Origin: an uncultured Candidatus Saccharibacteria bacterium
Lineage (GTDB): Bacteria > Patescibacteriota > Minisyncoccia > 2-02-FULL-40-12 > GWA2-44-9
DNA: 64,000 nucleotides
Reading direction: 5' to 3'
Assembly (NCBI GenBank): GCA_964491455.1
Contig: CAZBFM010000001.1
Coordinates: 3,053 to 67,052, forward strand
Part shown: positions 37,829 through 53,180 of the stretch, piece after piece
Layout: each line of letters opens with the position of its first letter
How positions within the stretch are numbered: position 1 is the first letter of the stretch
Notes under the pieces: generated by a model
The model's input: the letters and a program-made list of their open reading frames with translations, nothing else
Database searches by the model: none
What the model was told of the DNA's origin: nothing
Translations under genes and position numbers: made by a program

Positions 37829-37858
37829 TGGGGCTCTTTCGGGAGCCCTTTTTATTTA
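37829..37858. terminator. bidirectional terminator (gggctctttcgggagccc) between 37444 gene and ychF
   Basis: hairpin plus T-run. Confidence 0.55.
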
Positions 37859-38946
37859 CCGACGAGGACTTCGACGACGTCACCATCTTGGACGACGTAG
37901 TCTTTGCCGACCACACGCACGAGTCCTTTCTGGCGCGCTACACCGTAGCCGCCGCATTCGAGGAGTTGGTTGCAAGGTATGACTTCAGCGCGAATGAAGA
38001 GGCGTTCAAAGTCGGTGTGAATGGCGCGCGATGCACGGGGCATCAGATCGCCACGATGACAGGTCCACGCGCGCGTCTCGTCGGGTCCCGTGGTCAAAAA
38101 CGAAATGAGACCAAGCGTATGGTACGCCTCGCGAATGAGGCGATCCAGCCCACTCTCGGGAAGTCCGAGCTCGGTGAGAAAGCCCGCTTTTTCCTCGCGC
38201 GACATTTCTGAGAGCTCAAGTTCGAGCTTGTTGCACATAGCCACGTATTCAGAGCCATTCATCGCCGCGAGGAGCTCGGGTGATGGTTTCCAGTCCGAGG
38301 CGAGTTGAGAATCGGACACGTTGATGACGTAGATAAACTTCTTTGCCGTCAGGAGGCTCAATTCTTTGGCCAGCGCCTGTTCGTCGTCAGAAAGCTCGAG
38401 TTGACTGATGAGCGAGCCACGCTGAAGTGCGTCGGCGAGCTTCTGAAGAAGGGGGATCTGCTCACGAATAATTTTGTCGTTGCGTGCCTTGGCTTCTGAG
38501 GTGACGATACGCTTGGAGACGGTGTCTAGATCGGCGATGATGAGCTCGGCGTTGATAATGCCGATGTCCCGGATAGGATCCACGGTCTCGTGGACGTGAA
38601 TGATGTCGCCGCCATCGAATGCACGCACGACTTGTGCGATTGCATCGACTTCACGGATGTTGGCGAGGAACTTGTTTCCCAGTCCTTCTCCTTGGCTAGC
38701 ACCTTTGACGAGGCCTGCGATGTCGGTGAATTCGATGGTCGCATATATTTGCTTTGCGGATTTTGAGAGCTCAGCCAGTTTTCCGATGCGTTCATCGGGT
38801 ACCTCAACCACGCCGACATTGGGCTCAATGGTTGTGAAGGGGTAGTTTTGGATGTCGATCTGTTTGTTGGTGACAGCCTTAAAGAGTGTGGATTTGCCCA
38901 CATTGGGAAGGCCGACGATACCGATCGCTAGTTTTGTACTCGACAT
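37852..38946 (-). CDS. ychF: ribosome-binding ATPase YchF (Obg-family GTPase)
   Basis: MSSTKLAIGIVGLPNVGKSTLF…FTTIEPNVGVV…; TGS C-terminal domain. Confidence 0.9.
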   Translation of the reverse strand: MSSTKLAIGIVGLPNVGKSTLFKAVTNKQIDIQNYPFTTIEPNVGVVEVPDERIGKLAELSKSAKQIYATIEFTDIAGLVKGASQGEGLGNKFLANIREVDAIAQVVRAFDGGDIIHVHETVDPIRDIGIINAELIIADLDTVSKRIVTSEAKARNDKIIREQIPLLQKLADALQRGSLISQLELSDDEQALAKELSLLTAKKFIYVINVSDSQLASDWKPSPELLAAMNGSEYVAMCNKLELELSEMSREEKAGFLTELGLPESGLDRLIREAYHTLGLISFLTTGPDETRAWTCHRGDLMPRASRAIHTDFERLFIRAEVIPCNQLLECGGYGVARQKGLVRVVGKDYVVQDGDVVEVLVGK

Positions 38947-40558
38947 AATTTGATGGTATTGGCAGGTAACCAGATACTTCCAACCGTTCCTGGGTAGCTA
39001 CAACTTTATCTAAAACGTTTAATATTATGCCTCTTTTTGCGTCGAAACTCAAGTTGCTGAGACTTTTCGATGCTTTCATCGCGAATGCCTTCATTTGTTC
39101 ATTGCTGGGCAATCCATCAAATCCCATTTGGTTTCCATTTCGCTTTGCAGTCTCCGCCTGTGTCTCAAGAGATGCGATCTGGGCCCTGAGCGGTACGGTG
39201 TATTCCTTTAGTTGTTCCATGGTGAACAAGCCAGCCCCGTATGCCTTGCTGTAGCGCTCCTCCTGGATCTTTAACTTTTCGATTTCCTTTTGGATAACCT
39301 CTAAGTCACCAATTGATGATTTTGATTTGCCTTGTTGTGCGCGTATCCAGCGTTTAACCTGGGCCAACATTAACTCGGGAGAACTCATCAGGCTGGAGAC
39401 TTTCTTCCATACTAAATCATCAGCGATCCTGGCGTTTACCCCTTTTTCTTGGCATCGAGGTGGAAGGGGGAAGCTATAGATCCTATCACTGCACCGATAG
39501 TAGAGATGTTTTCCGTGTTGAGGCCCCTCTCCATGCCTTTTGATCCCACATGTGCAGTAAATTCTGCCACCCAGGAGATACTCATTCTTTTTATTTCGAT
39601 CACAGAGCGCGAAGTTGCTATCAAGTTGTTTACGGGCCCGTGCAAATAATTCTGGCTCAATGATTGCAGGGACGGGAATGTTGGATGCGATCCATTCTTC
39701 TTCTGGTTTTTGTTTGCGACTGCTCTTCTTCATCTTGCGGTACTTCTCTGTGTTGGTCGGATTTTCTGGAATAACAGCATACGAGCTACCCCAATGGGCC
39801 TGTCCAATATAGGCCTTGTTCCTGAGTAGAGTGCTCAGCGTAGAAGTACTCCAGACGCCACGCTTACTCTTTCGGGGACGGATGTCGAGTTCTTGTAGCC
39901 TCCTCACAACCTTTCTTATTGTGAAAGCTTCGTCGGCAATCCATTCAAAGATCATTTTGATGACGCGAGCTTCTGCTGGGTTGATTTCATAATACCCATG
40001 AGTTTTTACTCCATTCGCTTCTCGTTGGTTGGGCACGTATGTGTAGCCATAGAGGGCTTCGCTCACGAGAATATGCCCATCTCGTACTTTCCTAAGTTTT
40101 CCTAAGCGGAAGCGCTCAGAGATTTTTGCTCGTTCATATTCAGCAAACAGACCACGTACTCCGTGAAGGATTTTATCTTCAGGATTTTTGGGAGCAGTAA
40201 CCGTGACGAAAATTACCTCAATTCCTCCCTCCTTTAACTCATCCATTACCAACTCCTGATATGAGTATCGGCGGGCAAGGCGATCTGGGTCATAAATCAG
40301 GACGGCTTCCCAGAGTTTCGCTTTGGCATCCTGACGCAGTTGATCCAGGGCGGGTCGCGCAAGCACATCTCCACTCCAGCCGTCATCGGTATATTCACGG
40401 ACAATAGTATAGCCGTTCTTGGTAGCGAACTCACGCAGAGTGTTGAGTTGGATTTGGATGGTCTGCTCCTCTTCCTGTCGCGATGTCGATACTCGCGCGT
40501 AGATTGATATGAGTTTTGTCATGTTGTTTGGCATCTTCTTGGCGGAGTACTTCTTCAA
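38879..40558 (-). CDS. large serine recombinase (resolvase catalytic domain, recombinase domain, zinc ribbon, coiled coil)
   Basis: …ISIYARVSTSRQ… catalytic Ser; CTCGIKRHG…YYRC zinc ribbon; 3' end overlaps ychF start by 67 nt. Confidence 0.9.
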   Translation of the reverse strand: MKKYSAKKMPNNMTKLISIYARVSTSRQEEEQTIQIQLNTLREFATKNGYTIVREYTDDGWSGDVLARPALDQLRQDAKAKLWEAVLIYDPDRLARRYSYQELVMDELKEGGIEVIFVTVTAPKNPEDKILHGVRGLFAEYERAKISERFRLGKLRKVRDGHILVSEALYGYTYVPNQREANGVKTHGYYEINPAEARVIKMIFEWIADEAFTIRKVVRRLQELDIRPRKSKRGVWSTSTLSTLLRNKAYIGQAHWGSSYAVIPENPTNTEKYRKMKKSSRKQKPEEEWIASNIPVPAIIEPELFARARKQLDSNFALCDRNKKNEYLLGGRIYCTCGIKRHGEGPQHGKHLYYRCSDRIYSFPLPPRCQEKGVNARIADDLVWKKVSSLMSSPELMLAQVKRWIRAQQGKSKSSIGDLEVIQKEIEKLKIQEERYSKAYGAGLFTMEQLKEYTVPLRAQIASLETQAETAKRNGNQMGFDGLPSNEQMKAFAMKASKSLSNLSFDAKRGIILNVLDKVVATQERLEVSGYLPIPSNYVEYKTSDRYRRPSQCGQIHTL

Positions 40559-40723
40559 AGAGGAGATCGAATGCCCTATCTACTGCATCCGAAGGGGCAC
40601 TTATCGGCTCATAGCACAAAGAGGGACAACGAAGTGATGCTTTGTTGCTACACAAAAGCGTTCGTTGCCCCTCTTCAAGTTCGAGGTTATCGGCATCATA
40701 TTCACTTTTGTGTAGCAAGTCCA

Positions 40724-41335
40724 TTATACTCTTTTTCGCTTATTAAGTCGCGAGAACATCCCATAACTCAGGGTTGCGCGCCGATAAAGCGTCTCTAATT
40801 TCCTCTGCTTTTTTGTTGGTCGGCCAGCATAGTAGGGGCGTTTGATCTGTTGGCTCAGTTTTTCGATCTTGTCTTCGATGCGGATTGCGTCGAAAAGGGG
40901 AGCGTATGAGAAGTTGCGGTTTTCATTTCGCGAGTTGTAGGTCAGGTTGTAACAATGGCGACAGGCAAAATAGTCACCGTCTTTGTACAAGACTCCCACT
41001 CGTCGGCCGCAGTACACGCCACCTTTGTACCAAGGGCATTGGAACCAATATCGCTTCCCTCCATAACGGCACGGAGTTGTAACGAGAGGGATCTGGTAGT
41101 CAAACTCCTTTTTCTCGCCATCCGAGTCGGTTTGTGTGTAGTGGAAGCGTGCATGGCTTTGTCCTTGCATGGTTGCAACAACGATGCCTATGCTGCTTTT
41201 ATCACCCCATGCGCTTGTCCACTCGATCGTTCCAGATCTCCAGCCACAAAAATACTGGTGCCTCCTGAGAAAGCTCACCGATACTTTTTTTAGGCCATCT
41301 GCCTCTGTTTTTCCTCCATAACTCCATCGTCCCAT
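40724..41335 (-). CDS. hypothetical Cys-rich protein (putative zinc finger), island-borne
   Basis: 203 aa; multiple CxxC pairs (CRYGGKRYWFQCPW…CRHCYN). Confidence 0.45.
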   Translation of the reverse strand: MGRWSYGGKTEADGLKKVSVSFLRRHQYFCGWRSGTIEWTSAWGDKSSIGIVVATMQGQSHARFHYTQTDSDGEKKEFDYQIPLVTTPCRYGGKRYWFQCPWYKGGVYCGRRVGVLYKDGDYFACRHCYNLTYNSRNENRNFSYAPLFDAIRIEDKIEKLSQQIKRPYYAGRPTKKQRKLETLYRRATLSYGMFSRLNKRKRV

Positions 41336-41467
41336 GGTGGTATCTGTTATTTACCGAAATCATTTGAGATTGCGGGGGTCGTTTTTCACTAAACGATTGT
41401 ATTTCCTTGATTTTTACAATGAGTTTTCGGACATTTCCGACAACCATAATGTTAACTTTTGTTAACC

Positions 41468-43672
41468 TCAGAAGGGCAGTTCGGTGCCCTGATCTTGCCC
41501 TGTTTCCTCGTCATCCTGTTGGGTCACGTTAGTAGTTACCCCACCCTGCGTATCACTATATTCAGTGCCATCCGAAAGCTGCTTTGGGGAGGATGGGTAA
41601 ATCAACATCTTGCGTTTATCCGACGGGTCCTGCTCCTGGATAATGAGGCCCGCCGTTTCCAGCATTGGCAGGATTTGTTGGCGAAGTTGGTTGGAGTTCA
41701 GTATTCGGCCATACACTGTTAAATGCTTATCCAGCACCTCTTGTCGCGTAAGACCAGCTTTGCTCGCCAGGAGCGTGTAATCGGTGCCCTGGCCCGCGTT
41801 TTTGGCGTTCCAGAGGGGTACGATGACCTCGGTATAGAGGTTATAGATATAGGGTGGCAGGTTGAGTTCTTGGCTAACTGCGATTTTCTCCCAGAGTTTA
41901 AATGCGGCATCGATGTCAGCATCGTTGGCGGTGATCGTTGAGCCGCTACGCTCTCGCCACCACACATTGAGAAGTGCGAACGATTTGACGATCGACAGGA
42001 GGCGCTTGATGTCTCGCTGGTGGCGTGGCTTGAGTGTCTTGTTGTCGCGCAAATACTTCTCTTGGATGCGGTCTTTGGATGCGATGTTGATGTCTTTGAT
42101 CTTCTCCAGCTTGATAGCGTGGATGCGCTTTTTTAGGAGCATGCGATCGGGATTTTCCTCGAGCCAACTCACGAAGTCTTTGCTATTAGCTTCTTTACTG
42201 ATGATCGCACTGATGCTTTGCTGGATTTTCTCTTGATTGACTTCGGGCGAGAGAAGCAGAAAGCGGGTCGCCTCTTGTTCATCAATTTTCAGGCCTGCAG
42301 TGCAGAAAATAACGGAGGGGAAGCCACGCAAAAGAATATTCTTCGTTTTGAGACCAGCTTTCTGGGACTTATCAGTAATCTTGAGGGTGATCTCCTTTTT
42401 GTCGTGCGAAAGGAGGGGGCGAAGACGGGCCAAGAGTTCGTTGTGGGGCATGTCCAAGAAGATGAGGATCTTGTTGGATAGATCGACGAGGTACTGGTTC
42501 TTTTCTTTATCGTACTGCCCCGCATCGTGGAAGAAGGCGGTGGGGCTACAGTAAGCGATTTCCATGACATCATCCTGCGGGAAGAGACGAGCGATTTCAG
42601 TGGGAATATAACTCTTACCCGTTGAGCTTGGTGCGTTATAACTAATATTAAATTGGCTGTTTTCGGTGTACGCCGAGAGCTCACAAAGGAATGTGGCGAG
42701 CTTGTTTTCGGCATCGTATTTGATGGTCAGCCCCAGTGTCTCGATGAGTTGATCGGCAGTAAGCGGTTGGAACTGAGAGGTATCAATCCGTTCTGGGTAA
42801 GGCTTAGCATATTTGTCGAACAGGTCTTCGCCAATACCATTGAGGCTTGTGAAGTAATCGGTGATGTCGCCATGCTCTCCGACTTCCGTTGGCAGCGTGA
42901 TGAGGTGCGTTTCACGTCCACCATTGTCCACCATTTCGGCGACTCGTGACGCCCCTTTTCGGCCCGCTTCGTCATTATCGAAGCAAACGTAAATAGCTTT
43001 GATTGTTTGATTTTTAATCAGTTTTTCAACCCATTCATCTTTGAAGGTTCCAGCGCCGTGGGTTGAAGTAATGGCGGGGATACCATGAGTCACCAAAAGC
43101 AGACGATCCAGTTCTCCTTCGCAGATTACCAGGCGATCGTGAGCTTCTTCGAGTGTAGTCCAGTCATATAGCTGAGCCTGAGCACCCTTGGGATAGGTGA
43201 TCTTGTCATCGCCCATGACTGGATCTTGGCGCAGTTTGAAAAACGAGTAATTGCCAAAGGCATCCTTGATAGGGATAGTAATCCAGGATTTGCGGTAATA
43301 ATGACCATAACCGATCTTATATGTATCGATGATGGCATCAGAAAGACCGCGCTTGTGAAGGTACTCGCGAATGTGTGGAGGAAGAGCTCGGTGGCAATTT
43401 TCTACAGTTTCGGCATTGAAGACTTGTATCTTGCGCGGGCGCGTTAAGGTGTCTCCAAAATGCTTGGCCAGAGTGACCAGATTACCGCGTTCACCGCATT
43501 TCTTGCAGTCGTATTGGCCTGTTTCAGCATTGAAATACAGGTGGGCCTCGTTGCGTCGGCTGTCTTCATCGCATCCATTGAATACACAGTGAGTGATGAG
43601 CTCATTGCCGTGCTCGCGAAATTCAATGCCTTTCTGTGTCAGATAATCACGGATAGTAATAGTATGTGTCAT
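41468..43672 (-). CDS. DNA primase (CHC2 zinc finger plus TOPRIM) fused to P-loop NTPase (D5/SF3-like), mobile-element replication protein
   Basis: N-terminal HCxFxxC…CxxCG zinc finger; TOPRIM ICEGELD…CFDNDEAG; Walker A APSSTGKS; C-terminal wHTH. Confidence 0.75.
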   Translation of the reverse strand: MTHTITIRDYLTQKGIEFREHGNELITHCVFNGCDEDSRRNEAHLYFNAETGQYDCKKCGERGNLVTLAKHFGDTLTRPRKIQVFNAETVENCHRALPPHIREYLHKRGLSDAIIDTYKIGYGHYYRKSWITIPIKDAFGNYSFFKLRQDPVMGDDKITYPKGAQAQLYDWTTLEEAHDRLVICEGELDRLLLVTHGIPAITSTHGAGTFKDEWVEKLIKNQTIKAIYVCFDNDEAGRKGASRVAEMVDNGGRETHLITLPTEVGEHGDITDYFTSLNGIGEDLFDKYAKPYPERIDTSQFQPLTADQLIETLGLTIKYDAENKLATFLCELSAYTENSQFNISYNAPSSTGKSYIPTEIARLFPQDDVMEIAYCSPTAFFHDAGQYDKEKNQYLVDLSNKILIFLDMPHNELLARLRPLLSHDKKEITLKITDKSQKAGLKTKNILLRGFPSVIFCTAGLKIDEQEATRFLLLSPEVNQEKIQQSISAIISKEANSKDFVSWLEENPDRMLLKKRIHAIKLEKIKDINIASKDRIQEKYLRDNKTLKPRHQRDIKRLLSIVKSFALLNVWWRERSGSTITANDADIDAAFKLWEKIAVSQELNLPPYIYNLYTEVIVPLWNAKNAGQGTDYTLLASKAGLTRQEVLDKHLTVYGRILNSNQLRQQILPMLETAGLIIQEQDPSDKRKMLIYPSSPKQLSDGTEYSDTQGGVTTNVTQQDDEETGQDQGTELPF

Positions 43673-43684
43673 GTTGGGTAATAG

Positions 43685-43972
43685 TTATTCTGAGTACAGC
43701 TGATTTTTGAGAGCCTTAATGGTGTCGAAGAAGGCCCGTGCCTTTACGGTAAGTTGATCCAGGAAGTATTGATTTGCACGATCTTCAATTCCATCCTGTC
43801 TTTTGAAGATAAACAGGGCCTTTCGGGGGTCGTCTTTGTTCAGCGATAGTAGTTCGAAGCCACTGCACGCGAGGGCAGCGCTAACGCCGAGGTCATAGGT
43901 CGTGAAGACCAGTGATGGGTCATCTAACGGTATATACTGATATTCCTTGGGCCGACTTTTATTTTTGGGCAT
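43685..43972 (-). CDS. hypothetical small protein (island-borne)
   Basis: 95 aa ORF directly upstream of primase on same strand. Confidence 0.4.
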   Translation of the reverse strand: MPKNKSRPKEYQYIPLDDPSLVFTTYDLGVSAALACSGFELLSLNKDDPRKALFIFKRQDGIEDRANQYFLDQLTVKARAFFDTIKALKNQLYSE

Positions 43973-44119
43973 TGTAATGGGGTGATATTTTAATTGATGA
44001 GAGATCGACCATGACCCTCGCTATATGTGCTGAAAGGTCAGCGCAAGAAAAAACCTTGTCGTAAAACAAGGCTTTTCTCGGCTTGATTGGCCAAATAAAC
44101 CTCCTGATTTTTCAGGAGG

Positions 44120-46405
44120 CTATTCCTCTGAGTCGTCTATGGCGAGCTGATTCTCGTTGAGCCTACCTCCCTGTCGCCAAATGTCATTTTGTCGCAAACC
44201 TGGTACTGGTAATAATTTGAATTTAGGATCGTAATAATCGCTTCTTGCGTGGAACGGATCATCGTCCGTTTTGAAGATAGAGCGCATGCTTTTTACAAGT
44301 AATCGTTTAATCTGGTATACATTTCCCAATTTTAGGGAGATGTTTGATCTTGCAGCAACCATACGCGTCATTTGCTGCGCTGTAGCGGTGTGAATATCGG
44401 TTGCGGCGAGCGCAGATAGTGCCTCTAGGAAATTCCATTCACGAGTTGGTTTTTGCTGTTTTTTACCCCTGGAGAACCCTAGCTGTACGTAATCTGGGGC
44501 GGCGATGTATTTCCCGTCGTAATAGATCTCAATCTCTTTGGCTCCTTCTTTAAATTTAATTTCAACTTTCTCGAATTTAACTACCTCGGGGAAGACGAGG
44601 TCAATTGAGTGTCGCTTTTTTACCGCGCGCCTGATGCCGAATATTTCTGGCGGAGATGCTATGGGTATGAGCGCGTTGCCAGGTACAATGTAGTAGTCTT
44701 GCGACTCTGGTTTGGTCGTTTTCTGAGCACGCGCTTCCGCTTTATCTTGAGGTTTCCGCGGTTGGCGTTTGAGTAAGTATGGTGAGAGATTTCCCTTAAT
44801 CTCATCTCGTTGGATGTGTACATCAGTTCTTCGTTGGTGCAGATAATATCCAATGAGGTTCATTTCTGGTGACGTTGCATTGAGTGCATTTTCGATATGG
44901 CCCTGGATGACAGGACTCCTCAAGCCATCAAATGTGTTGAGCAAGAAGAAAGAGTAAAGGGACTTTTCTACTCCACTGCTCGCTTCTTTCATTGATCGCT
45001 TAACGAGCTCAATGTCTATGTCCTGTTCTCGAATGGCTTTATGGTATAGGGCAACAACCTTGAAGATTGTTGTTTCCTTCTCACTCAGGATACGGTCGAT
45101 TTCCTGGTCTAGCTCACCAATGATGATGCTTTTGTTTGACGCTAGCAGTTTGAGTATCCAGAATTTCGACCAGTCGGTGACCTCACTGTTATTGTACGCT
45201 TCCCAAAGTGCGCTATCGATGGTTATGGCATCGAGTGGGTCGCCAAAAATATCGAGCATTACCATAGAGTCGGCAATGTATTGAATGATTGGCACTGTCA
45301 GTGAGGGTCGGATCGGGATGATCTTGATAAGGTCAAGGATCAAATTAAGGTTGAAGATTACGCTGGCCTTCAGATAGTACTTAAGACCGCGAATTTCTAG
45401 CTTCTCAACCTTTTCACCGCTGATTATTGCACCGATGATTCGGGGGATTGTGGCGGTGATACGCGCAAAATCGTCCTCGGGTATTTCGGGGGTGCTGTAG
45501 TCATAATCGGAGCTGATGCGCATGGCCTCAATCGCTTCAGTATCCTGAAGCTCGGTAACTTTTGTTTTCTCGTTGAGATTTAGGTTGTGACCTCGAAGAA
45601 AGCGTACTATTTTTTCTGTCGCTTTGAGCACATCTTCTTTGCTCCTGCCCATCAGCACAAGATCGTCCACGTATCGTAGATAGCGGAAGTTTTTCCCAGC
45701 CAGTTCTTCTTCGATATATTCATCAAGAGACGCAAGATATGCATTAGCGAGAACCGCTGATGGGCCAGGGCCTTGGGGCAATCCTTTTGGTAGGTCAGGA
45801 AACTCGGTCCATGTTCTCAGTTGTGTGTCGAGTATGGATAGAATTTTTTCATCCTTAATGCCAAAGTCGTTTTTGATTTTCTCCATTAACTTTCCGATTG
45901 GGATATGCTCGTAATATTGCTGAACATCAACCTCCAACTTCCAGACCAGCCCCTTTTCAAATGCTTTCTTTTGCCCTTCGCAGAACTTATCCCAATCATT
46001 GAAATATGGGGCGATAAAGGCTGGTGTTTCTGCATTATCATGAACTCGATTACCAAAACAGCTTTTGTCGGAGAGCTGATTGTCGATTTTGTATCCAAGG
46101 ATTTCTTGGTTGAAGATGGCTTGGAATACGATTCGATCGATCATCGACATTACGTAGACGGGCCGAAGGGCTAGATTGTCTTTAGGTATGTAAACGAAGA
46201 ACCCCTTTTCGGGGGCATAATTACCGTCTCGGATCTGTTTCTCTAGGGCAACAAAGAATTCGCCACCAAGGGCATCAATGGCAGTAGTGGCAGGATGATT
46301 AATTGGGTTTACGGAAAGTGTCGAGTGTGAGAGCTCGTGTTGAACGTGTGTGTATGCCAGCTTTAGGTTTTCTCGCGATGAGAACCGCTCAAAAAGAGTC
46401 GCCAT
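44120..46405 (-). CDS. reverse transcriptase, Abi/UG (defence-associated RT)-like, with about 450-aa helical C-terminal extension
   Basis: RT motifs: …LRPVYVMSMIDRIVFQA…; GLPQGPGPSAVLANAYL; YVDD (RYVDDLVLMG); 761 aa; no intron/retron context; neighbours are R-M and nuclease genes. Confidence 0.8.
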   Translation of the reverse strand: MATLFERFSSRENLKLAYTHVQHELSHSTLSVNPINHPATTAIDALGGEFFVALEKQIRDGNYAPEKGFFVYIPKDNLALRPVYVMSMIDRIVFQAIFNQEILGYKIDNQLSDKSCFGNRVHDNAETPAFIAPYFNDWDKFCEGQKKAFEKGLVWKLEVDVQQYYEHIPIGKLMEKIKNDFGIKDEKILSILDTQLRTWTEFPDLPKGLPQGPGPSAVLANAYLASLDEYIEEELAGKNFRYLRYVDDLVLMGRSKEDVLKATEKIVRFLRGHNLNLNEKTKVTELQDTEAIEAMRISSDYDYSTPEIPEDDFARITATIPRIIGAIISGEKVEKLEIRGLKYYLKASVIFNLNLILDLIKIIPIRPSLTVPIIQYIADSMVMLDIFGDPLDAITIDSALWEAYNNSEVTDWSKFWILKLLASNKSIIIGELDQEIDRILSEKETTIFKVVALYHKAIREQDIDIELVKRSMKEASSGVEKSLYSFFLLNTFDGLRSPVIQGHIENALNATSPEMNLIGYYLHQRRTDVHIQRDEIKGNLSPYLLKRQPRKPQDKAEARAQKTTKPESQDYYIVPGNALIPIASPPEIFGIRRAVKKRHSIDLVFPEVVKFEKVEIKFKEGAKEIEIYYDGKYIAAPDYVQLGFSRGKKQQKPTREWNFLEALSALAATDIHTATAQQMTRMVAARSNISLKLGNVYQIKRLLVKSMRSIFKTDDDPFHARSDYYDPKFKLLPVPGLRQNDIWRQGGRLNENQLAIDDSEE

Positions 46406-46700
46406 AGTAATAGTAATGTTGGTGGCATCCTACTCCCCAAGAGGGCTTATATCAAGGTATCGATGAGGCTTCCAATTAACCATCAATAGTGGTAATTTAT
46501 GCTTAACAATTTATCGCCTAACCCTTGTGAGCTTGTTGTCACAAGATATGGCGAAAAAATCCCCATCCCTGATACTGAACCCCTCGTTCAGCGCACTCAG
46601 GGATGGGTCATGCCCGAAAGGGTATGTGAGTCGCAAGACTCAACGCTAGCGGGGGGCTTTGTGTTTCCCGTTTGCGACATAGGTTTTACCCATCCCTACT

Positions 46701-47588
46701 ATGTCGAAAAAACTTCATCGGTTTGCCATTGCCGACCTTTTTGCTGGCATTGGCGGTTTCCATCTTGCCTTCCATCGTCTTGGTGCGGAGTGTGTTTTTG
46801 CAAGTGAATGGGATGAACACGCTCGAAAAACATACGAGCACAACTTTAAGAAAATCAGTCCCGACCTCTTTGAGAGTGGGAACTTTGCGGGAGATATAAC
46901 AAAAGTTTCTGCCAGCGCAGTACCCGATTTCGATATTCTCACAGGTGGTTTTCCGTGTCAGCCGTTTAGCCAGGCTGGCTTCAAGAAGGGATTTCAAGAT
47001 GCACGAGGGACTTTATTTTTTGATATTGCTCGCATCATTAGAGCGAAGCGACCCGTAGCGTACTTTATTGAGAATGTTCGGCATCTCCAGAAGCATGATG
47101 ATGGTAAGACGTTCGCTGCAATAAAAAGAATTATCGAGGACGACCTCGGTTACTCTTTCCATGCAAAAATCGTGAAGGCATCAGATTTCGGTTTGCCCCA
47201 GCATCGTCCGCGTCTTTATATGGTTGGTTTCAGGGATAAGGACGTTCCGTTCAAGTTTCCTGATCCCGTGCCATTAAAGATGAGTATGTCGGATGTGTTT
47301 GGAGGAGAGTGCGCGCGGAATGTTGGTTTCACTCTTCGCCTGGGAGGGCGTGGCTCTGGGCTCAACGATAGGAGGAATTGGGATACCTACCTTGTTGATG
47401 GAAAACAAAGAAGGCTGTCGCCTTTGGAAGGCAAGAAGATGATGGGCTTTCCGAATAGTTTTCATTTTCCTGTCACTGAAACCCAGGCGATGCGTCAGTT
47501 GGGTAATAGCGTTGCTGTGAATGCAATACGGGCAACCGCTCGAGAGATTATTAGTTCGCTTAATCATTACTATGGCAAAGGGAAATAG
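46701..47588 (+). CDS. DNA (cytosine-5)-methyltransferase
   Basis: motif I DLFAGIGGF, motif IV GGFPCQPFSQAG, motif VI ENV, QLGNSV. Confidence 0.9.
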   Translation: MSKKLHRFAIADLFAGIGGFHLAFHRLGAECVFASEWDEHARKTYEHNFKKISPDLFESGNFAGDITKVSASAVPDFDILTGGFPCQPFSQAGFKKGFQDARGTLFFDIARIIRAKRPVAYFIENVRHLQKHDDGKTFAAIKRIIEDDLGYSFHAKIVKASDFGLPQHRPRLYMVGFRDKDVPFKFPDPVPLKMSMSDVFGGECARNVGFTLRLGGRGSGLNDRRNWDTYLVDGKQRRLSPLEGKKMMGFPNSFHFPVTETQAMRQLGNSVAVNAIRATAREIISSLNHYYGKGK

Positions 47589-48651
47589 GGGTGAATGGAG
47601 TGAATTCTATGCCTTCATCAAACTCCTTTCGGAGAGACAGTTGAGTGCGGCTGATGATAACCTCCAGAAAATAAAAGACATTTTTTACCCAGTCCTACGA
47701 GTTATTCGCGAAGAGGCTACTGGAGTAACGGATTACGAGTTTGCTGAAGAGGGAAAGGTGAGAGTGCTCCAGGCTGGTACTGAAATCGCCCTGGTAGATA
47801 GTTCTGACCTAAAATCAAAGGTCTTGGATATATTTCAGGCAATCCAAGATAGTAGTGAAACTACTTTTGAAGTATCAGTTGCAGATGAGTTGATGACGCG
47901 TTTTCATGCTACTCGTCTTAATGCGGGCAATGGACGGAAAGAGGACATCGTCCTAAAAATACATGATCGCATGACTGGCACAGAGCCAGATGTGGGCTTT
48001 AGTATCAAATCGATGCTTGGCAACCCTGCTACTCTTCTCAATGCGTCTAGCGCCACAAACTTTATATATAAAATTTCGGGCCTTGGTGATGACCAGATCG
48101 AACGCATAAATTCAATTGATACACACTCAAAGGTTCGCGATCGCCTCTCTGCAATTGTTGCATCAGGAGGAGCTTTTACTTTTCAGGGTATGAGTTCGGG
48201 GGTTTTCACGAAGAACCTTCGACGAATTGATGCGGTTTTGCCAGAGATTTCAGCGCAGCTACTTCTGGCATTTTATATGGGCAAGGGGAGCCTCTTGCCA
48301 GATCTGGTTGCTAACCTGGGGGATGATGAGACGAATATACTTACATTCGATTTAGATCGCTCCGACTACGAGTTTAAGGTGAAAGGCTTGCTATACAATA
48401 TAGCCCTCGGCATGGTGCCCAATACGCCCTGGGATGGCCTTACGCGGGCCCACGGAGGGTATATTATCGTGCGTGAGGATGGAGAGATCGTTGGGTATCA
48501 TCTATCGAACGCAGATACTTTCAGGGGCTACCTGTACAAGAATGCACGTTTTGACACTCCGAGCACCACGCGTCACGGTTTCGGTTTGATCTACCAGGAG
48601 AATGGGGAGTCTTTTATCAAGTTGGCGATGCAGATTCGTTTTATTCGCTGA
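47572..48651 (+). CDS. putative Type II restriction endonuclease (HpaII-family-like) partnered with the C5-methyltransferase
   Basis: overlaps methyltransferase stop by 17 nt; N-terminus MAKGNRGEWSEFYAFIKLL resembles HpaII-type REases (recalled from memory, not searched). Confidence 0.5.
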   Translation: MAKGNRGEWSEFYAFIKLLSERQLSAADDNLQKIKDIFYPVLRVIREEATGVTDYEFAEEGKVRVLQAGTEIALVDSSDLKSKVLDIFQAIQDSSETTFEVSVADELMTRFHATRLNAGNGRKEDIVLKIHDRMTGTEPDVGFSIKSMLGNPATLLNASSATNFIYKISGLGDDQIERINSIDTHSKVRDRLSAIVASGGAFTFQGMSSGVFTKNLRRIDAVLPEISAQLLLAFYMGKGSLLPDLVANLGDDETNILTFDLDRSDYEFKVKGLLYNIALGMVPNTPWDGLTRAHGGYIIVREDGEIVGYHLSNADTFRGYLYKNARFDTPSTTRHGFGLIYQENGESFIKLAMQIRFIR

Positions 48652-48720
48652 CAGAAGACCAGTCGATGAGTGTCATAAAGCCTTGTTATTGTTCGATTTT
48701 TATAATAAAATCCCTCGGTT

Positions 48721-49467
48721 ATGTTTCAGGCAAAGACCCAACGAATATCAGAGCTGGCTGCAAAGTATCCAGATCGCATTATGGAAATGGAGTCGATTTT
48801 GAGCGCGTCGGCCAATGTCTATGTAGATTATGCGAATGTTCGTCCCTGGTCTGAGCGCCTCAAGTGGCACGTTGAACCGAAGCGGCTCAAGCAATTTTTA
48901 GACTCCTTCTCAAATTTTAAGTCCATCCGCTTTTATTCTGGTGAATTAAAGGGAGATGTTGACTCCGAAGCTTCTACTCAGGAGTTAAAGCGGATTTTCA
49001 ATTCTGGTCTCGTTACCAAGCCCGTTAAGATTATGCGACTCCCAATCAATGTTTCGAGCATTCCCAAGAATGATCCTGCTATCCTAAAGGATTTTATTCG
49101 TAAGCCGCTACTACAGAAATTAACGGTTCAAACCGTCGAATTATTAAATGGAGAGTTGGAGAAACTTAACCAGCAGGGTACGGCTTTCCTTGAGGATAGG
49201 AAGTGTAACTTCGACGTTGAGATAGGGACTGACATTCTTTTGGATCTTGAAAGGGGAAGTGCTGATGTCTTTGTGCTCTGGAGTGGAGATAGTGACTTTG
49301 CGGATCCTATTAGTAAGTTGCTTGCTGCGGGGAAAAAGGTCTACCTATTTGCTACTGCTCGCAGGATTGCTAGCGAGCTTAATACCCTTACGACTAGTGG
49401 ATTGGTAATTTTTGATATTCAGAAGATAAGGGACTTTATATGCTGGGCTCGTGAAATAACCCCGTAA
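48721..49467 (+). CDS. NYN/LabA-like domain protein (putative nuclease)
   Basis: …VYVDYANV…DVEIGTD…VLWSGDSDF… Asp pattern typical of NYN/PIN-like domain. Confidence 0.6.
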   Translation: MFQAKTQRISELAAKYPDRIMEMESILSASANVYVDYANVRPWSERLKWHVEPKRLKQFLDSFSNFKSIRFYSGELKGDVDSEASTQELKRIFNSGLVTKPVKIMRLPINVSSIPKNDPAILKDFIRKPLLQKLTVQTVELLNGELEKLNQQGTAFLEDRKCNFDVEIGTDILLDLERGSADVFVLWSGDSDFADPISKLLAAGKKVYLFATARRIASELNTLTTSGLVIFDIQKIRDFICWAREITP

Positions 49468-49476
49468 AATCAAGCA

Positions 49477-49508
49477 AAAGGGGCCCCTTGCGGGGCCCCT
49501 AAGCTTTA
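49477..49508 (+). terminator. hairpin terminator (aggggccccttgcggggcccct)
   Basis: 10-bp GC stem; weak T-run. Confidence 0.45.
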
Positions 49509-49640
49509 GAGTTCGTGATTGTTTCCAATCAGGGACATGATACCATACCCTGCTCCATTTTGTCCACATGGCCTGAAAAAGTCGTGAAACCTATTATAAT
49601 GACTCTTGGGGGAGTAATTAAGAAGCTATGACAGGGATAT

Positions 49641-49669
49641 TGACTTATCAGTATAAAACTGCTATAATG
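49641..49669 (+). promoter_or_regulatory. sigma70-like promoter (TTGACT-N17-TATAAT) for DGR target gene, about 165-nt leader
   Basis: consensus hexamers. Confidence 0.5.
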
Positions 49670-49834
49670 TAGGTAGGATATAGCTCTTTTCATCCATATA
49701 ACTTGCAGGTTTTGCTACAGCAGAGAGCGCCTATTGTGGGCCCTGTCTACTGTGGCAAAACCATGAGGTAGCGCCCAACAGTGCAACCGATGTGTCCCGC
49801 AAGGGATGTGTCACCAAACAGGAGATGCGTAGCT

Positions 49835-50425
49835 ATGGCTACTCCGTCTGATGTCAGCGTGGGCCTGGCCCACGAACTCACCATCACCACCACGAAGGCG
49901 GGATGGGAACCCAAGGACTTCGCAACCCTCGCCCACAGCGAGGACAAGGCCCGCGAGATCCTCGCGTACCTGCGCGGTCTCTCCGAGATCAAGCAGGTCA
50001 CGCACGCCATCGACTGCGATGCCGACCCCTTCCTGCCCAACGGCTGGCGGGTGGAAGAGCACCGCAAGGACGGCGTGATCGTCTGGGACCTCACCAAGGT
50101 CTCCCTTTATCTCTCCAAGGGGCAGAAGGGCGACAAGCGTATCGTCGGCAACGACCTCCGCAAGGAGCTCGCCAAGAAGCCCACGATGAACGCCAACGTG
50201 CTGGACTACCTGCTCAAGAACCCCCACCTCATTCCCGAGGACTGGAAGAAGGACGACCGTGGCAACACGCGCTACATCTTCTTCTGGGGGACCATCTACC
50301 GCGGCTCCGGCGACGGCCTGTACGTCCGCTATCTGTGCTGGGACGGCGGTGCGTGGAGCTGGGACGTCGGCTGGTTGGGCCGCGTCTTCGTCGGCGACCG
50401 CCCCGCTGCGTTGCGTGCAAGTTAG
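49835..50425 (+). CDS. DGR target protein 1 (196 aa, no signal peptide, C-terminal variable region); high-GC gene
   Basis: start at ATG 49835 (AGGAG 11 nt upstream; aligns with paralog N-terminus MAAKSAFSIVGLAHKL); VR at 3' end; conserved motifs IDCDADPF, MNANVLDYLLKNPHLIPEDWK, TRYIFFWGTIY. Confidence 0.75.
   Translation: MATPSDVSVGLAHELTITTTKAGWEPKDFATLAHSEDKAREILAYLRGLSEIKQVTHAIDCDADPFLPNGWRVEEHRKDGVIVWDLTKVSLYLSKGQKGDKRIVGNDLRKELAKKPTMNANVLDYLLKNPHLIPEDWKKDDRGNTRYIFFWGTIYRGSGDGLYVRYLCWDGGAWSWDVGWLGRVFVGDRPAALRAS
50298..50420 (+). repeat. DGR variable region (VR1)
   Basis: 123-nt homolog of TR; about 23 mismatches, 22 at positions where TR has A; 3'-terminal 20 nt identical to TR. Confidence 0.75.
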
Positions 50426-50487
50426 GTCCTTGGACCTGGTTCCTTAGGCCCCGTTGGCCTCTGAACCTTAGTCCTTCGACCCCGTTC

Positions 50488-50528
50488 GATGCCCTGTGTG
50501 CGAAAGCGCATGGGGCATCTTTTTTTGT
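50488..50528 (+). terminator. hairpin (gatgccc…ggggcatc) plus T7 downstream of VR1
   Basis: inverted repeat plus T-run. Confidence 0.5.
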
Positions 50529-50762
50529 GCTAAAATTAAATTGGAATTAGGCGAATATGCGGGCGACTACGGTTTCCTGCTGCCGAACCCAGTATCCATA
50601 CAACCCAGAATATCTCCGACTACGGTTTGAGGTAGCGTGGTGTATGTAGAAACTTCAAAAAATGAAGATACTTGGTAGGGGGTGCTATAGCATTGCGATG
50701 CCGAATACGATACAGCCCTGAGAGTACTCGAAGGGCAGTGGCACGGAAGGCACTCACTACAC

Positions 50763-50885
50763 ACCGCAACTCCGACGACAACCTGTACGTCCGCTATCTG
50801 TACTGGAACGACGGTGCGTGGAACTGGAACTACAACTGGTTGGACAACGACTTCAACGGCAACAACCCCGCTGCGTTGCGTGCAA
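50763..50885 (+). repeat. DGR template region (TR), adenine-rich (many AAC codons)
   Basis: aligns to VR1 with A-specific mismatches; located upstream of RT. Confidence 0.75.
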
Positions 50886-50891
50886 CTCTCC

Positions 50892-51287
50892 TCATTTCTC
50901 TCCCTTCGCGGGAGAGTTTTGTTTTTGCAGTTGGCCGTTCCATCCACCCATCATTTTGCCGATCTCATCCATCTTTAGAGATAGCGCGGCATACTTCTGG
51001 CTGTTCAATGATTTCGTCTCCCAGAGTACCAAGAGTAGTACTTTGAGCGTGTCTGTCTTTCGTATGGCGAGCCGAACATACGGGAGTTTCTCGTTGCGTG
51101 GAAGGAAGCTGGCAGTTGCCAGAGCTTCGATCAGTTCAATAAACAGGGCATCTATTCGTAGTCCAAGTGAGTGTCGGTGTGTCTTTGGGAGTGTTTGGAG
51201 ATAGCTATACCAAAGAATATAGGCACTTTTTGTGCTTTGAAGTAGTGGTATCAGCGGGGGGGGGGTATTATAGGAAGAATGGCTCAT
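50892..51287 (-). CDS. avd: Avd-like four-helix-bundle protein (accessory variability determinant), opposite strand
   Basis: …LPKTHRHSLGLRIDALFIELIEALA…LAIRKTDTLKVLLLVLWETKSL…EIGKMMGGW resembles four-helix-bundle/Avd family; start could be at 51431 (179 aa). Confidence 0.5.
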   Translation of the reverse strand: MSHSSYNTPPPLIPLLQSTKSAYILWYSYLQTLPKTHRHSLGLRIDALFIELIEALATASFLPRNEKLPYVRLAIRKTDTLKVLLLVLWETKSLNSQKYAALSLKMDEIGKMMGGWNGQLQKQNSPAKGEK

Positions 51288-52286
51288 AAGCAGTTCAAAT
51301 ATCCATACCAGAGTATCATTTCTTTGGAAAATCTCCTCCAGGCGTGGAGGGAGTTTCTTGTTGGTAAGCGGAGCCGAAAAGACGTTCAAGATTTTGAGCG
51401 TAATTTCATGGACAATGTTATTGCGCTGCACAGCGACTTAAGAGACAAGACATACTCTCATTCGGCGTATGAAAGTTTCAACATTTCCGACCCTAAGCCA
51501 CGGCACATTCATAAGGCGACCGTGCGAGATCGGTTATTGCACCACGCACTCTACCGAAATCTCTATCCATTCTTTGCGAGAGCGTTTATTTCGGACTCCT
51601 ATTCCTGTCAGCTCAATAAGGGGACGCATCGAGCGATGGATCGTTTTCGATCGTTTGAGCGTCAGGTATCCCGCAACCACACTCGCACAGCATGGGTGCT
51701 CAAGTGTGATGTGCGAAAGTTCTTTGCTTCTATAGACCAGGCAGTTCTTTTGGGGATTTTAAAGCAGTACATTCCAGATCAAGATACTCTCTGGCTGCTC
51801 TCGCAGATCATTGGAAGCTTTTCTTCGACCAAACCTGGTTTGGGGTTACCTCTGGGAAATCTCACCTCTCAACTCCTGGTGAATATCTATATGAACGAGC
51901 TGGATCAATTCGTGAAACACTCCCTGGGGGCTAAGCACTATATCCGCTATGCTGATGATTTTGTCGTTATGTCCCACGACAGGTCTTGGCTCGAAGAGTT
52001 GTTGCCTAGAATAGCTGACTTTTTAAATGAAAGGCTGTGCCTGGAACTTCATCCCAATAAAGTTTCTATTCAAGCTCTTGCCTCGGGAGTCGATTTTCTC
52101 GGTTGGGTGCACTTCTCTGACCATAGGGTGTTGAGAACGGTAGCAAAAAGGAGGATGTTTAGAGGTCTTGGGTCGCGAGGAGGCAATTCTCAAACCGTGC
52201 AGGCGTATTTGGGACTCATAAGCCATGGAAATACCAAAAAGCTCGAGCAACGAGTGCGCCAGCTTTCTTCCGAATATAGTGAGTAG
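51279..52286 (+). CDS. DGR reverse transcriptase
   Basis: 335 aa; RT motifs incl. LPLGNLTSQLLVNIYMNELD (DGR-type (I/L)GxxxSQ) and IRYADDFVV (YADD). Confidence 0.9.
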   Translation: MAHKQFKYPYQSIISLENLLQAWREFLVGKRSRKDVQDFERNFMDNVIALHSDLRDKTYSHSAYESFNISDPKPRHIHKATVRDRLLHHALYRNLYPFFARAFISDSYSCQLNKGTHRAMDRFRSFERQVSRNHTRTAWVLKCDVRKFFASIDQAVLLGILKQYIPDQDTLWLLSQIIGSFSSTKPGLGLPLGNLTSQLLVNIYMNELDQFVKHSLGAKHYIRYADDFVVMSHDRSWLEELLPRIADFLNERLCLELHPNKVSIQALASGVDFLGWVHFSDHRVLRTVAKRRMFRGLGSRGGNSQTVQAYLGLISHGNTKKLEQRVRQLSSEYSE

Positions 52287-52571
52287 CGGGGTAGGGTGAC
52301 TATCGAATAACTCCTGGAACTGTCTGAAAGTTAGGAGGTGGGAGTTTTATGGTGAACTGGAAGGGGATCAGCTTGAGATTTTCACTGTCAGCATGTCGGG
52401 TAGTGTTCATACCATGCCAATAGAGAGTGCCATAGGGTGTCAGTGTAGCACTGGACGAGGTTCAATTCTAGACCTTGTGAAATTAAAGTATTGTGATATA
52501 ATATACTTGTTCGTTAAGAATACTCAAGCGACAAGATCCGCAAGGATAGTCGCGCAAACAAGGAGGGCCGT

Positions 52572-53165
52572 ATGGCCGCAAAATCCGCGTTTTCAATAGT
52601 GGGGTTAGCCCACAAGCTCTGTTTAGCTTTCGAAGCACAGGGCTTCACGCCTGAACTTCTGAACGCACTTGCTGAAAGTCCGCATATCTTGGCTGAGCTG
52701 CGCAATGTCCAACGTGGCTATTCGGAGATCAAACCGATTACCTACGTTATCGACTGTGACGCCAAACCATTTGTACCTGATGAGTTGGAAGTCTTCGAGC
52801 ATATGCCAGGTGGTGTAGTCGTTTGGGACCCAACGAAGATTTGCCTGTTTCTCTCAGAGCGACAGAAGTGTGGTGCACTCGTAGTCGGAAACAAGCTGCG
52901 TAAGGAGCTCGCTCGAAGTCCGACGATGAACGCCAACGTCTTGAGCTTTCTGCTCAAGAACCCGCACCTCATTCCGGAGGACTGGAAGTACGACGAGCGT
53001 GGCAACACGCGCTATATCTTTTTCTGGGGCACAATCTACCGCGACGTTAGTGGACAACTGTGCGTTCCGTATCTGTGCTGGAACAGCTCAGTGTGGGTCC
53101 AAAATTATCACCGGTTGAAATACGTATTCACTTATATTCATCCCGCTGCGATGTACGTGCACTAG
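52572..53165 (+). CDS. DGR target paralog 2 (197 aa) with diverged VR
   Basis: about 50-60% identity to target 1 across length; C-terminus retains …YLCW… and cccgctgcg but mismatches vs TR not A-specific. Confidence 0.7.
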   Translation: MAAKSAFSIVGLAHKLCLAFEAQGFTPELLNALAESPHILAELRNVQRGYSEIKPITYVIDCDAKPFVPDELEVFEHMPGGVVVWDPTKICLFLSERQKCGALVVGNKLRKELARSPTMNANVLSFLLKNPHLIPEDWKYDERGNTRYIFFWGTIYRDVSGQLCVPYLCWNSSVWVQNYHRLKYVFTYIHPAAMYVH

Positions 53166-53180
53166 CACTGCTCAGCTTTC

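Follow-up and report, generated by a model that had tools for sequence, protein, structure and literature searches.

Genes and features of the locus

The DNA analysed here is a 64,000-nt stretch (the window; all coordinates without another locus name refer to it) of a Patescibacteria (Paceibacteria-like) chromosome in which the ychF gene, coding for a host GTPase of the essential type, is entered by a block of foreign genes. Very probably, positions 38,923-52,418 are a single integrated mobile element of 13,496 bp. Reading away from ychF, the element comprises a large serine recombinase, a Cys-rich protein, a primase joined to a P-loop NTPase, a small DUF5659 protein and a reverse transcriptase (RT), all on the minus strand; then, divergently, a restriction-modification (R-M) operon headed by a LOOT RNA; and finally a diversity-generating retroelement (DGR) with its template repeat (TR) and variable repeat (VR). 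The features are as follows.

37852-38946, minus strand: ychF, host GTPase and integration target (Pfam MMR_HSR1 and YchF-GTPase_C)
38879-40534, minus strand: large serine recombinase, 551 aa from its ATG, in an open reading frame (ORF) that opens at TTG 40558 (Resolvase, Recombinase, Zn_ribbon_recom)
38918-38925: attL core ATACCGAT, proposed CC crossover at 38921-38922 (three-way attB/attL/attR alignment and attP dyad)
40724-41335, minus strand: Cys-rich (zinc-ribbon-like) backbone protein, 203 aa (no Pfam, PDB or PADLOC match)
41468-43672, minus strand: DnaG-type primase, 734 aa (CHC2 finger and Toprim, P-loop NTPase, C-terminal winged-helix-like region)
43685-43972, minus strand: DUF5659 protein, 95 aa (Pfam PF18903, 2e-10)
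44030-44115: conserved spacer between the RT and DUF5659 genes, with two inverted copies of a 12-bp palindrome
44120-46405, minus strand: class-1 UG/Abi-type RT, 761 aa (RVT_1 9.6e-15; PADLOC RT_UG19 3.5e-52)
46515-46642, plus strand: LOOT RNA, Rfam RF03000 (cmscan 77.8 bits against a gathering threshold of 46.4; model positions 1-121 of 121)
46701-47588, plus strand: C5 cytosine methyltransferase, M.HpaII-like, 295 aa (Pfam DNA_methylase 2.9e-77; PADLOC MTase_II 5e-97; TIGR00675)
47572-48651, plus strand: HpaII-type endonuclease, 359 aa from MAKGN, in an ORF that opens at 47521 (RE_HpaII 1.1e-105)
48721-49467, plus strand: NYN-domain protein, 248 aa (Pfam NYN 2.6e-12; VDYAN and GDSDF motifs)
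49835-50425, plus strand: DGR target gene, 196 aa, with the VR at 50298-50420
50763-50885, plus strand: DGR template repeat (blastn and alignment with the VR)
50892-51431, minus strand: bAvd-like accessory protein (Pfam bAvd PF22296, 8.8e-11, 42.7 bits against a cutoff of 40)
51279-52286, plus strand: DGR RT, 335 aa, YADD (RVT_1 2e-21)
52414-52433: attR, core ATGCCAAT at 52414-52421, CC crossover at 52417-18; matching to the empty-site relative L092 restarts here

A preliminary description of this DNA, made from the sequence, had listed the genes from the recombinase to the NYN gene. Open reading frame mapping and domain searches find every one of them present, intact, in that order and on the strand that had been given; the list was incomplete in that it missed the LOOT RNA at 46515-46642.

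An empty site and the ends of the element

The extent of the element is fixed by a close relative that lacks it. The Ca. Pacebacteria metagenome-assembled genome GCA_017992005.1 (locus L092), reached through cluster mates of the downstream phosphoglucomutase (PGM) at 90% identity or more, carries an unbroken series of ychF, a 152-aa gene and PGM, and matches the flanks of the element at 93-95% identity with the element itself absent. In a blastn comparison with L092 the breakpoints fall at window 38925, on the ychF side, and at 52411; L092 positions 9305-9415 correspond to window 52411-52521 (111 nt, comprising the ychF start and its upstream spacer), and a third matching block begins at 53,244. 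The insertion runs from the CC at 38,921-22 to the CC at 52,417-18. The element has a GC content of 47.6%, against 52-53% in its flanks. A Logan contig (L081) represents the same genome with 1 mismatch, and a YchF scan of reference genomes returned, among the matches listed, homologues of at most 54% identity and no empty site.

The three attachment sites attB, attL and attR have only an 8-bp core in common, built around a CC dinucleotide. In the three-way alignment attB reads GACGATGCCGAT followed by AGAGAG, attL GACGATACCGAT followed by CGCTAG and attR CATACCATGCCAAT followed by AGAGAG; attB includes GGCCGACGAT(A/G)CCGATAGAGAGTGCCAT and the reconstructed attP includes GTTCATACCATGCCGATCGCTAGTTTTG. 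The best dyad symmetry of this attP is centred on the core CC, with ATGTCG(G/A)GTA present in inverted orientation at -24 to -15 on both sides, and it is on the strength of that symmetry that CC is proposed as the crossover dinucleotide. The P' arm extends to approximately 38952 and holds a surrogate ychF ATG. The native ychF start has been displaced to the opposite end of the element, where it lies inverted at 52,417-52,433: the reverse complement, ATGGCACTCTCTATTGG, encodes MALSIG.

Direct repeats of at least 9 nt are absent between the two junction regions, and an 11-nt inverted match is at chance level. Serine recombinases are expected to leave no long flanking repeats, and the result does not speak against mobility; the repeat search that had been suggested in the preliminary description is unsuited to an enzyme of this class. 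Its other suggestion, to look among relatives for an empty ychF site, is answered by L092. Its central idea of an integrative mobile element with an integration and a replication module holds, given the intact serine recombinase and the primase/NTPase. The two findings that it named as refuting its reading, the same gene block at this locus in all relatives without flanking repeats, or a recombinase pseudogene, were not made: L092 is without the element and the recombinase gene is intact. Its extent of 38879-49510 (about 10.6 kb) has to be revised, the empty site placing the far end at about 52,418 for a total of 13.5 kb that includes the DGR. Its placement of the island beside ychF also gives way: the alignment with the empty site and the comparison of N-termini put the insertion inside ychF, at codons 5-6.

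The ychF target and the serine recombinase

Recombination at the CC dinucleotide falls in the Ile-Gly codons (codons 5-6) of ychF, just before the P-loop. The first 7 codons of the resident gene (MSSTKLA, 38923-38946) are supplied by the element and replace MALS; beyond the crossover at 38921-22 the DNA is the host's. The YchF of the relative begins MALSIGIVGLPNVGKS and that of the window begins MSSTKLAIGIVGLPNVGKS. An exact match to this 364-aa YchF is not on record because gene callers place the start later. The last 14 codons of the recombinase are host ychF DNA: read from TTG 40558, the protein has 559 aa in the integrated state and would have 584 aa in the excised state. The overlap of the recombinase and ychF frames noted in the preliminary description is real, at 68 nt (38879-38946) rather than 67.

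The recombinase has the expected domains (PF00239 Resolvase, 1.2e-30, residues 19-161; PF07508 Recombinase, 2.1e-20; zinc ribbon PF13408, 6e-5 at 23.7 bits, just under the 25.3 cutoff) and the catalytic motif YARVSTSRQ, and it matches the phrog_95 integrase over residues 5-527 (2.5e-93). Inside its 3' end, at 39024-39052 on the minus strand, lies a promoter-like site (TTGAGT, 17 nt, CATAAT), some 80 nt ahead of the start of the rebuilt ychF. With it the element may supply ychF with a promoter; scanning for promoters and terminators gave no overall enrichment over shuffled sequences and is used descriptively only.

The recombinase clade has 4249 homologues. Those of L101, L119 and L141 are 52-64% identical to the window enzyme and overlap the ychF start by 53-64 nt, and L116 is a decayed copy at the ychF site that retains only a C-terminal recombinase remnant. 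Element-supplied or short YchF starts are found at these occupied sites as well: MSNCSHT in L101, MSSHTLR in L119 and MSLR in L116. The YchF proteins of the hosts of L101, L119, L141 and L116 are only 45-52% identical to that of the window. The far ends of L101 and L119, located by symmetry with P' (18/30 and 20/30 matches), delimit elements of 13.6 and 16.8 kb, and in both a native ATG...MSLKV-GG ychF remnant precedes the far end. In L116 (10001-13631) an RT of 37% identity that covers residues 1-556 only is followed by the recombinase remnant and then by ychF; the element there appears to be immobilised.

The majority of elements carry recombinases of other clades, whose genes run at the 3' end into a tRNA gene of the opposite strand; around these tRNA-site elements no direct repeat reaches 14 nt. 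A recombinase 63% identical to that of the window is also found in Bradyrhizobium diazoefficiens (L140, AP014685.1, 4434065-4455879), among insertion sequence elements and not at ychF. This degree of identity between a Patescibacterium and a proteobacterium suggests inter-phylum transfer of the integrase clade.

The R-M cargo and the loss of CCGG

The methyltransferase has the motifs FAGIGG, GFPCQ, ENV, QHRPR and GNSV, and the endonuclease covers the RE_HpaII profile from end to end (positions 1-359 of 359; PADLOC REase_II 1e-95). The NYN gene closes the operon and is followed by a strong terminator at 49479-49500. A PDB sequence search with the NYN protein and a Pfam search of its N-terminus gave no match; its PADLOC matches (NYN, HEC-09) reach only about 1e-5, and an anti-phage role for it is unsupported.

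The predicted target of the R-M pair is CCGG, the HpaII site, and the element has purged this tetranucleotide from its own DNA: it retains 1 copy where 23.3 are expected (Poisson, approximately 2e-9), while GGCC, GCGC, CGCG and GATC occur at expectation. Observed and expected counts of CCGG are distributed as follows.

Backbone: 0 observed, 11.4 expected
R-M segment: 0 observed, 4.7 expected
DGR segment: 1 observed, 7.1 expected
Left flank: 27 observed, 34.0 expected
Right flank: 30 observed, 28.6 expected

The nearest CCGG sites outside the element are at 38,569 and 52,974, so that the depletion brackets the unit defined by the att sites. The sole CCGG of the element is at 50307, inside the VR of the DGR; retrohoming into the VR could keep making sites for the element's own HpaII-type endonuclease. 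The R-M system probably both protects the host and stabilises the element, acting as a defence and addiction module.

In related elements the region that diverges from the RT slot mostly encodes R-M systems of types I, II and III-like, as follows.

L086, L100, L101, L129, L137, L139, L141: type III-like N6_N4 methyltransferase and ResIII
L090: type I R-M
L128: C5 methyltransferase, NgoFVII and Z1
Window: HpaII-type R-M

The diversity-generating retroelement

The DGR is complete and lies between the NYN terminator and attR. The template and variable repeats differ at TR adenines in 22 of 23 mismatches, and the DGR probably diversifies the 196-aa protein, a predicted binding protein; no Pfam family matches the DGR target genes. 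The bAvd ORF extends to at most 179 aa, and the true start is probably internal to it. The empty site and the CCGG depletion of the DGR segment together make the DGR part of the element. Most family members are without a DGR; the related ychF-site element L101 has one near its far end, with an RT 46% identical to that of the window DGR and a bAvd homologue beside it.

Two paralogues of the target gene lie on the host side, just outside attR, at 52572-53165 and 53313-53771. Their VR-like ends differ from the TR at all bases and not at adenines only. The 197-aa paralogue and its promoter (52522-53243) are absent from L092 and are flanked by a repeat of about 25 nt; this paralogue looks like a tandem duplication.

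The reverse transcriptase of the backbone operon

The 761-aa RT retains its YVDD motif (residues 245-248), of which Y245 and D247 are invariant, and D248 nearly so, in 28 homologues. Its AlphaFold2 (AF2) model (predicted local distance difference test score, pLDDT, 83.5) consists of an RT domain (1-300), an alpha-helical repeat (310-545), a disordered linker and an alpha/beta domain (610-740). Foldseek pairs the RT domain with group II intron RTs, and about 500 columns with UG15/DRT4, DRT6, Abi-P2, AbiK and DRT9. UG19 is the best PADLOC profile for 28 of 28 members of the RT family (for the window RT, 176 bits against 149 bits for UG21). UG19 is predicted to be defensive and its accessory domain is described as distantly HEPN-like, while several UG/Abi RTs rely on a neighbouring non-coding RNA (ncRNA) (PMC9226505). 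Reading of the C-terminal domain revealed no Rx4-6H (HEPN) motif, and Pfam has no match to the helical or the C-terminal domain. By fold and profiles the RT is a class-1 UG/Abi enzyme nearest to UG19, and it most likely acts as an abortive-infection or defence polymerase.

There are about 60 full-length homologues of this RT, 42-62% identical and all from Patescibacteria-type sources. Four related elements (L137, L138, L139 and L141) keep the backbone, with primases 70-75% identical to that of the window in the first three, and have unrelated, Pfam-less genes at the RT position; none of these slot proteins matches the RT profile. The presence of unrelated genes at this position in four elements means that the RT, in the manner of defence cargo, fills a variable slot.

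The C-terminal domain of the RT (about 170 aa) also ends many proteins of about 300 aa without a Pfam family (P0386, P0389, P0390, P0397 and others). That the slot proteins of the RT-less elements share it was considered and rejected by blastp, phmmer and profile search. The sole link is a 30% N-terminal match between the 309-aa slot protein of L139 and P0386, which hints at domain shuffling among slot genes. Before the RT start codon (window 46406-46425; also in L082, L086 and L090) stands a short direct repeat, ATTACnATTACnATG, and a similar sequence, AAATTACAATTACAAT, is found in codons 2-8 of the LOOT-linked methyltransferases of L097, L112, L115 and L121.

LOOT RNA at the head of the cargo operon

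The window has a single LOOT RNA. It stands at the head of the cargo operon, 58 nt ahead of the methyltransferase gene, and is oriented away from the RT. Nine further loci have it, three by the Rfam model (L097, L111, L138) and six by a custom covariance model built from three copies (L112, L115, L121, L122, L132, L141). In 10/10 loci LOOT is on the cargo strand, 15-75 nt before the first cargo ORF, and in 8/10 that ORF is a DNA methyltransferase, recognised by Pfam (window, L141) or by sequence motifs (for example DPPYN, KWAGGK). The methyltransferases so linked are of four unrelated types: C5, Dam-like and two N6/N4 kinds.

Specificity of LOOT for the RT was entertained and rejected, LOOT being present in the RT-less L138 and L141. 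Its occurrence without an RT in 2 of the 10 loci assigns it to the head of the cargo operon and not to the RT. LOOT is most likely a 5' leader that controls expression of the cargo, mainly of methyltransferases. Its Rfam entry is that of a small RNA without an assigned role; the main text of PMC5737381 does not discuss its context, and the literature searched yielded no published account of LOOT at methyltransferase cargo operons. Directly 3' of the Rfam model, at window 46643-46700 and likewise in L097, L112, L115, L121 and L132, is a conserved stretch, GGGCUUUGUGUUU; in some copies it makes up the loop of an additional hairpin that immediately precedes the start codon of the cargo. The functional RNA may extend beyond the Rfam model.

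The backbone and the element family

The primase is recognised by Toprim_2 (6.4e-11), phrog_239 primase/helicase, TIGR01391 and PDB matches to DnaG. Its AF2 model matches DnaG, Twinkle and T7 gp4 (Foldseek 2au3 at 5e-13), and 26 homologues show no variation in the CHC2 cysteines or in the EGELD, DxD, Walker A (APSSTGKS) and Walker B (IFLD) motifs. The C-terminal half, to which Pfam has no match, is modelled at pLDDT 30-60; Foldseek alignments of the model with Twinkle and gp4 extend over 440-548 columns, and weak matches to MCM/ORC (AAA+) proteins are present too. The primase/NTPase is presumed to be the replication protein of the element.

The DUF5659 gene lies directly upstream of the primase gene in all related loci, and homologues of the 203-aa protein, 31-59% identical, occupy the equivalent position in related elements; PDB sequence searches with these two proteins gave no match. 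In the spacer between the RT and DUF5659 genes one copy of the palindrome, CTGAAAAATCAG (44104-44115), is the conserved core of the RT terminator hairpin, and the second, CTGAyyTTTCAG (44030-44041), precedes the DUF5659 start. The palindrome columns are invariant in an alignment of five elements whose proteins are 50-60% identical, and the palindromes are candidates for an operator or an origin.

Across the synteny set (L082-L091 and 44 metagenome loci analysed by tblastn) the shared gene order is RT, DUF5659, a small ORF, primase (63-75% identical), a protein of about 180 aa, the homologue of the 203-aa protein (31-59%), recombinase and then host genes. The recombinase module is exchangeable among elements. 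Judged by homologue counts, the primase backbone is far more widespread than the RT (2,683 against about 60); the best 120 of the 2683 primase homologues are 66-76% identical to it. Profiles of the RT and primase found no relatives in IMG/VR (2.9 million contigs), and in deposited phages and plasmids only the generic primase domain was matched, at 25-32% identity. Literature searches on DUF5659, UG19, LOOT and Patescibacteria serine-recombinase/primase elements turned up no published description, and the family is apparently both large and undescribed.

Two observations concern possible introns. At L137 14279-14488 a group I intron-like match (47.2 bits against a gathering threshold of 50) lies beside a LAGLIDADG gene directly downstream of the recombinase. 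In the window, far from the element, a 23S rRNA match at 13486-16656 spans 3171 nt against the 2925 positions of its model, an excess that suggests an insertion or intron; both are frequent in Patescibacteria rRNA genes.

Weighing the alternatives

That the element is a 10.6-kb island beside ychF, ending near 49.5 kb, with the RT, the R-M system and the NYN protein as three independent anti-phage systems and the DGR as host DNA, is very improbable. This account has the gene content right, the terminator at 49479-49500 does close the R-M/NYN operon, and the four backbone elements without an RT do make the RT accessory; yet host matching to L092 restarts only at 52,411, the remnant of the native ychF start is at 52417-52433, CCGG depletion extends over 49.5-52.4 kb, the insertion is within the ychF coding sequence, and the defence matches of the NYN protein are marginal. 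Of the three anti-phage candidates in the preliminary description two stand, the R-M genes as a complete type II system and the RT as a UG/Abi-type enzyme, and the NYN protein (PADLOC, about 1e-5) falls away; the element, for its part, is no ad hoc island but one member of a family that is large and conserved. Two nested or successive insertions, with the DGR as a separate cassette and only the RT/primase/recombinase element now mobile, would be in keeping with the commonness and mobility of DGRs in Patescibacteria, with the target paralogues just beyond attR in the host and with the absence of a DGR from most family members. We consider this improbable: the P arm, on the far side of the DGR RT, is the dyad-symmetric partner of the P' arm beside the recombinase, the DGR segment has 1 CCGG against 7.1 expected, with that one site in the hypervariable VR, and a DGR is likewise found toward the far end of L101. 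The element may well have picked up the DGR as cargo at an earlier time, but the two now move together.

A cryptic prophage, or a P4- or PICI-like (phage-inducible chromosomal island) satellite in need of a helper phage, is suggested by the size of 13.5 kb, the integrase and primase/NTPase core with variable defence cargo, and the PHROGs matches of integrase and primase. Patescibacteria phages are, moreover, poorly sampled. Still, searches of the element with Pfam and PHROGs yield no gene for a capsid, terminase, portal or packaging redirection, the RT and primase have no relatives among the 2.9 million IMG/VR contigs, and known phages and plasmids match the generic primase domain at 25-32%; a satellite is unlikely, if a little less so than two insertions. 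We give about as little weight as to two insertions to the proposal that the RT serves replication, maintenance or transfer of the element, by protein-primed or RNA-templated synthesis with the primase and perhaps with LOOT as its partner. Four backbone elements do without the RT, three of them with a 70-75% identical primase; LOOT is found in the RT-less L138 and L141 too and is transcribed away from the RT, toward the cargo; about 60 full-length RT homologues stand against 2683 for the primase; and fold and profiles place the RT among defence-associated UG/Abi enzymes. What speaks for the proposal is that RT homologues of 70% down to 29% identity all keep their position ahead of DUF5659 and the primase, that in 8 loci with an RT the LOOT RNA is 110-310 nt upstream of it, and that several UG/Abi RTs use neighbouring ncRNAs (PMC9226505).

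Several points weigh against the preferred reading, of a single mobile element whose RT is defence cargo and whose LOOT RNA is a cargo leader. The position of the crossover within the 8-bp core is placed by symmetry, and attL and attR are each one base off the attB of the relative, beside the CC, differences that are attributed to strain polymorphism. The excised circular form was not seen, with 0 circular contigs among the related loci, and the element has no recognisable gene for conjugation, a relaxase or a virion. RT homologues stay linked to the same backbone down to 29% identity, which is not the usual pattern for defence cargo that exchanges freely and would also suit a role specific to the element. 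The ORF that follows LOOT is an SNase-domain gene in L138 and, in L122, an ORF cut by the contig end, without a recognised family. Activity of the recombinase, of the RT and of the endonuclease is predicted from intact motifs, and the NTPase half of the primase is too poorly modelled to establish it as a helicase.

A model for integration and maintenance

On the reading of a single mobile element, the observed facts are the precise presence or absence of the element at ychF, the rebuilding of the ychF start, the intact motifs of its enzymes, the adenine-specific divergence of TR and VR and the purging of CCGG; the scheme that follows is built on these. The recombinase would catalyse integration by attP x attB recombination, the 3' end of its own gene spanning attP. 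The surrogate start in the P' arm rebuilds YchF with 7 new residues, and the native start is left at attR. After excision, the circle would be replicated by the primase/P-loop NTPase, aided by the DUF5659 and Cys-rich proteins, with the 12-bp palindromes between the RT and DUF5659 genes serving as operator or origin. Accessory DNA occupies two variable positions. One is the first gene in the operon of the backbone, here the RT, which would act as an abortive-infection-type polymerase; the other is the divergent cargo operon headed by LOOT, which would act as a leader controlling its expression. In the window the divergent cargo consists of the C5 methyltransferase and the HpaII-type endonuclease, both of predicted CCGG specificity, the NYN nuclease and a self-contained DGR.

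Relation to known systems

The element resembles those moved by other large serine recombinases (phiC31, Bxb1, A118, SPbeta, SCCmec Ccr, Tn4451/Tn5397 and fdxN XisF) in the Resolvase-Recombinase-zinc ribbon architecture of its enzyme, in its use of a specific site within a gene, in the lack of long direct repeats and in an imperfect attP dyad around a 2-bp crossover. NCBIfam detects similarity of the recombinase to CcrB and XisF, far from the equivalog cutoffs (CcrB, 103 bits against 900). It is unlike the known elements in targeting the 5' end of ychF and replacing its N-terminal codons while the gene stays intact, in having attP inside the 3' coding end of the recombinase, and in its Patescibacterium host. 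P4-like satellites and PICIs are small, with an integrase and primase/NTPase core and variable defence cargo. The element shares with these and with mobilisable elements its small size, an integrase with a primase/NTPase module, and variable slots for R-M systems and RTs; it departs from the satellites in its serine rather than tyrosine integrase, in having no recognisable helper-exploitation, relaxase or oriT functions, and in the uncharacterised DUF5659 and 203-aa Cys-rich proteins of its backbone.

The RT is like other class 1 UG/Abi enzymes (UG19; DRT4/UG15, DRT6, AbiK, Abi-P2) in its YVDD RT domain, alpha-helical repeat and matching fold; its moderate score, the extra C-terminal alpha/beta domain of about 170 aa and its place in the backbone slot of a mobile element set it apart from UG19. 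The R-M operon pairs a full-length RE_HpaII endonuclease with a C5 methyltransferase, as HpaII R-M does, but the methyltransferase is short (295 aa), LOOT precedes the operon and an NYN gene follows. LOOT matches RF03000 over its full length and is here fixed at the head of the cargo operon of one element family. The DGR has the C-terminal VR, adenine-specific TR, bAvd and YADD RT of BPP-1-type and Patescibacteria DGRs; unlike the usual DGR, it is cargo of a serine-recombinase element and has its bAvd on the opposite strand.

Implications

The element is a serine-recombinase integrative element, or defence-carrying island, with a DGR, a LOOT RNA and an RT in an exchangeable slot. Patescibacteria have tiny genomes and, to our knowledge, almost no characterised mobile elements; the locus provides one that is precisely delimited, with attL, attR, attB and a reconstructed attP. 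Its integrase belongs to a ychF-targeting clade that uses a near-universal site (the codons for Ile-Gly just ahead of the P-loop) and restores the gene into which it inserts, which makes the clade of interest for genome engineering with integrases. The element-wide loss of CCGG indicates that restriction-site avoidance can map the boundaries of a mobile element independently, and for the orphan RNA LOOT its fixed place in front of methyltransferase-led operons offers a functional context that can be tested, the first to be found. A broader proposal is offered tentatively, as a possibility somewhat short of an even chance: that the DUF5659/primase/serine-recombinase elements are a large, undescribed Patescibacteria class that targets and rebuilds tRNA genes or the most conserved 5' codons of housekeeping genes such as ychF, with LOOT as a dedicated cis-regulator (leader or riboswitch-like) that times the defence cargo, or else as a partner of the UG/Abi RT in the slot. 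The family, with its thousands of homologues, appears to be a main vehicle for R-M systems, UG/Abi RTs and DGRs in Patescibacteria.

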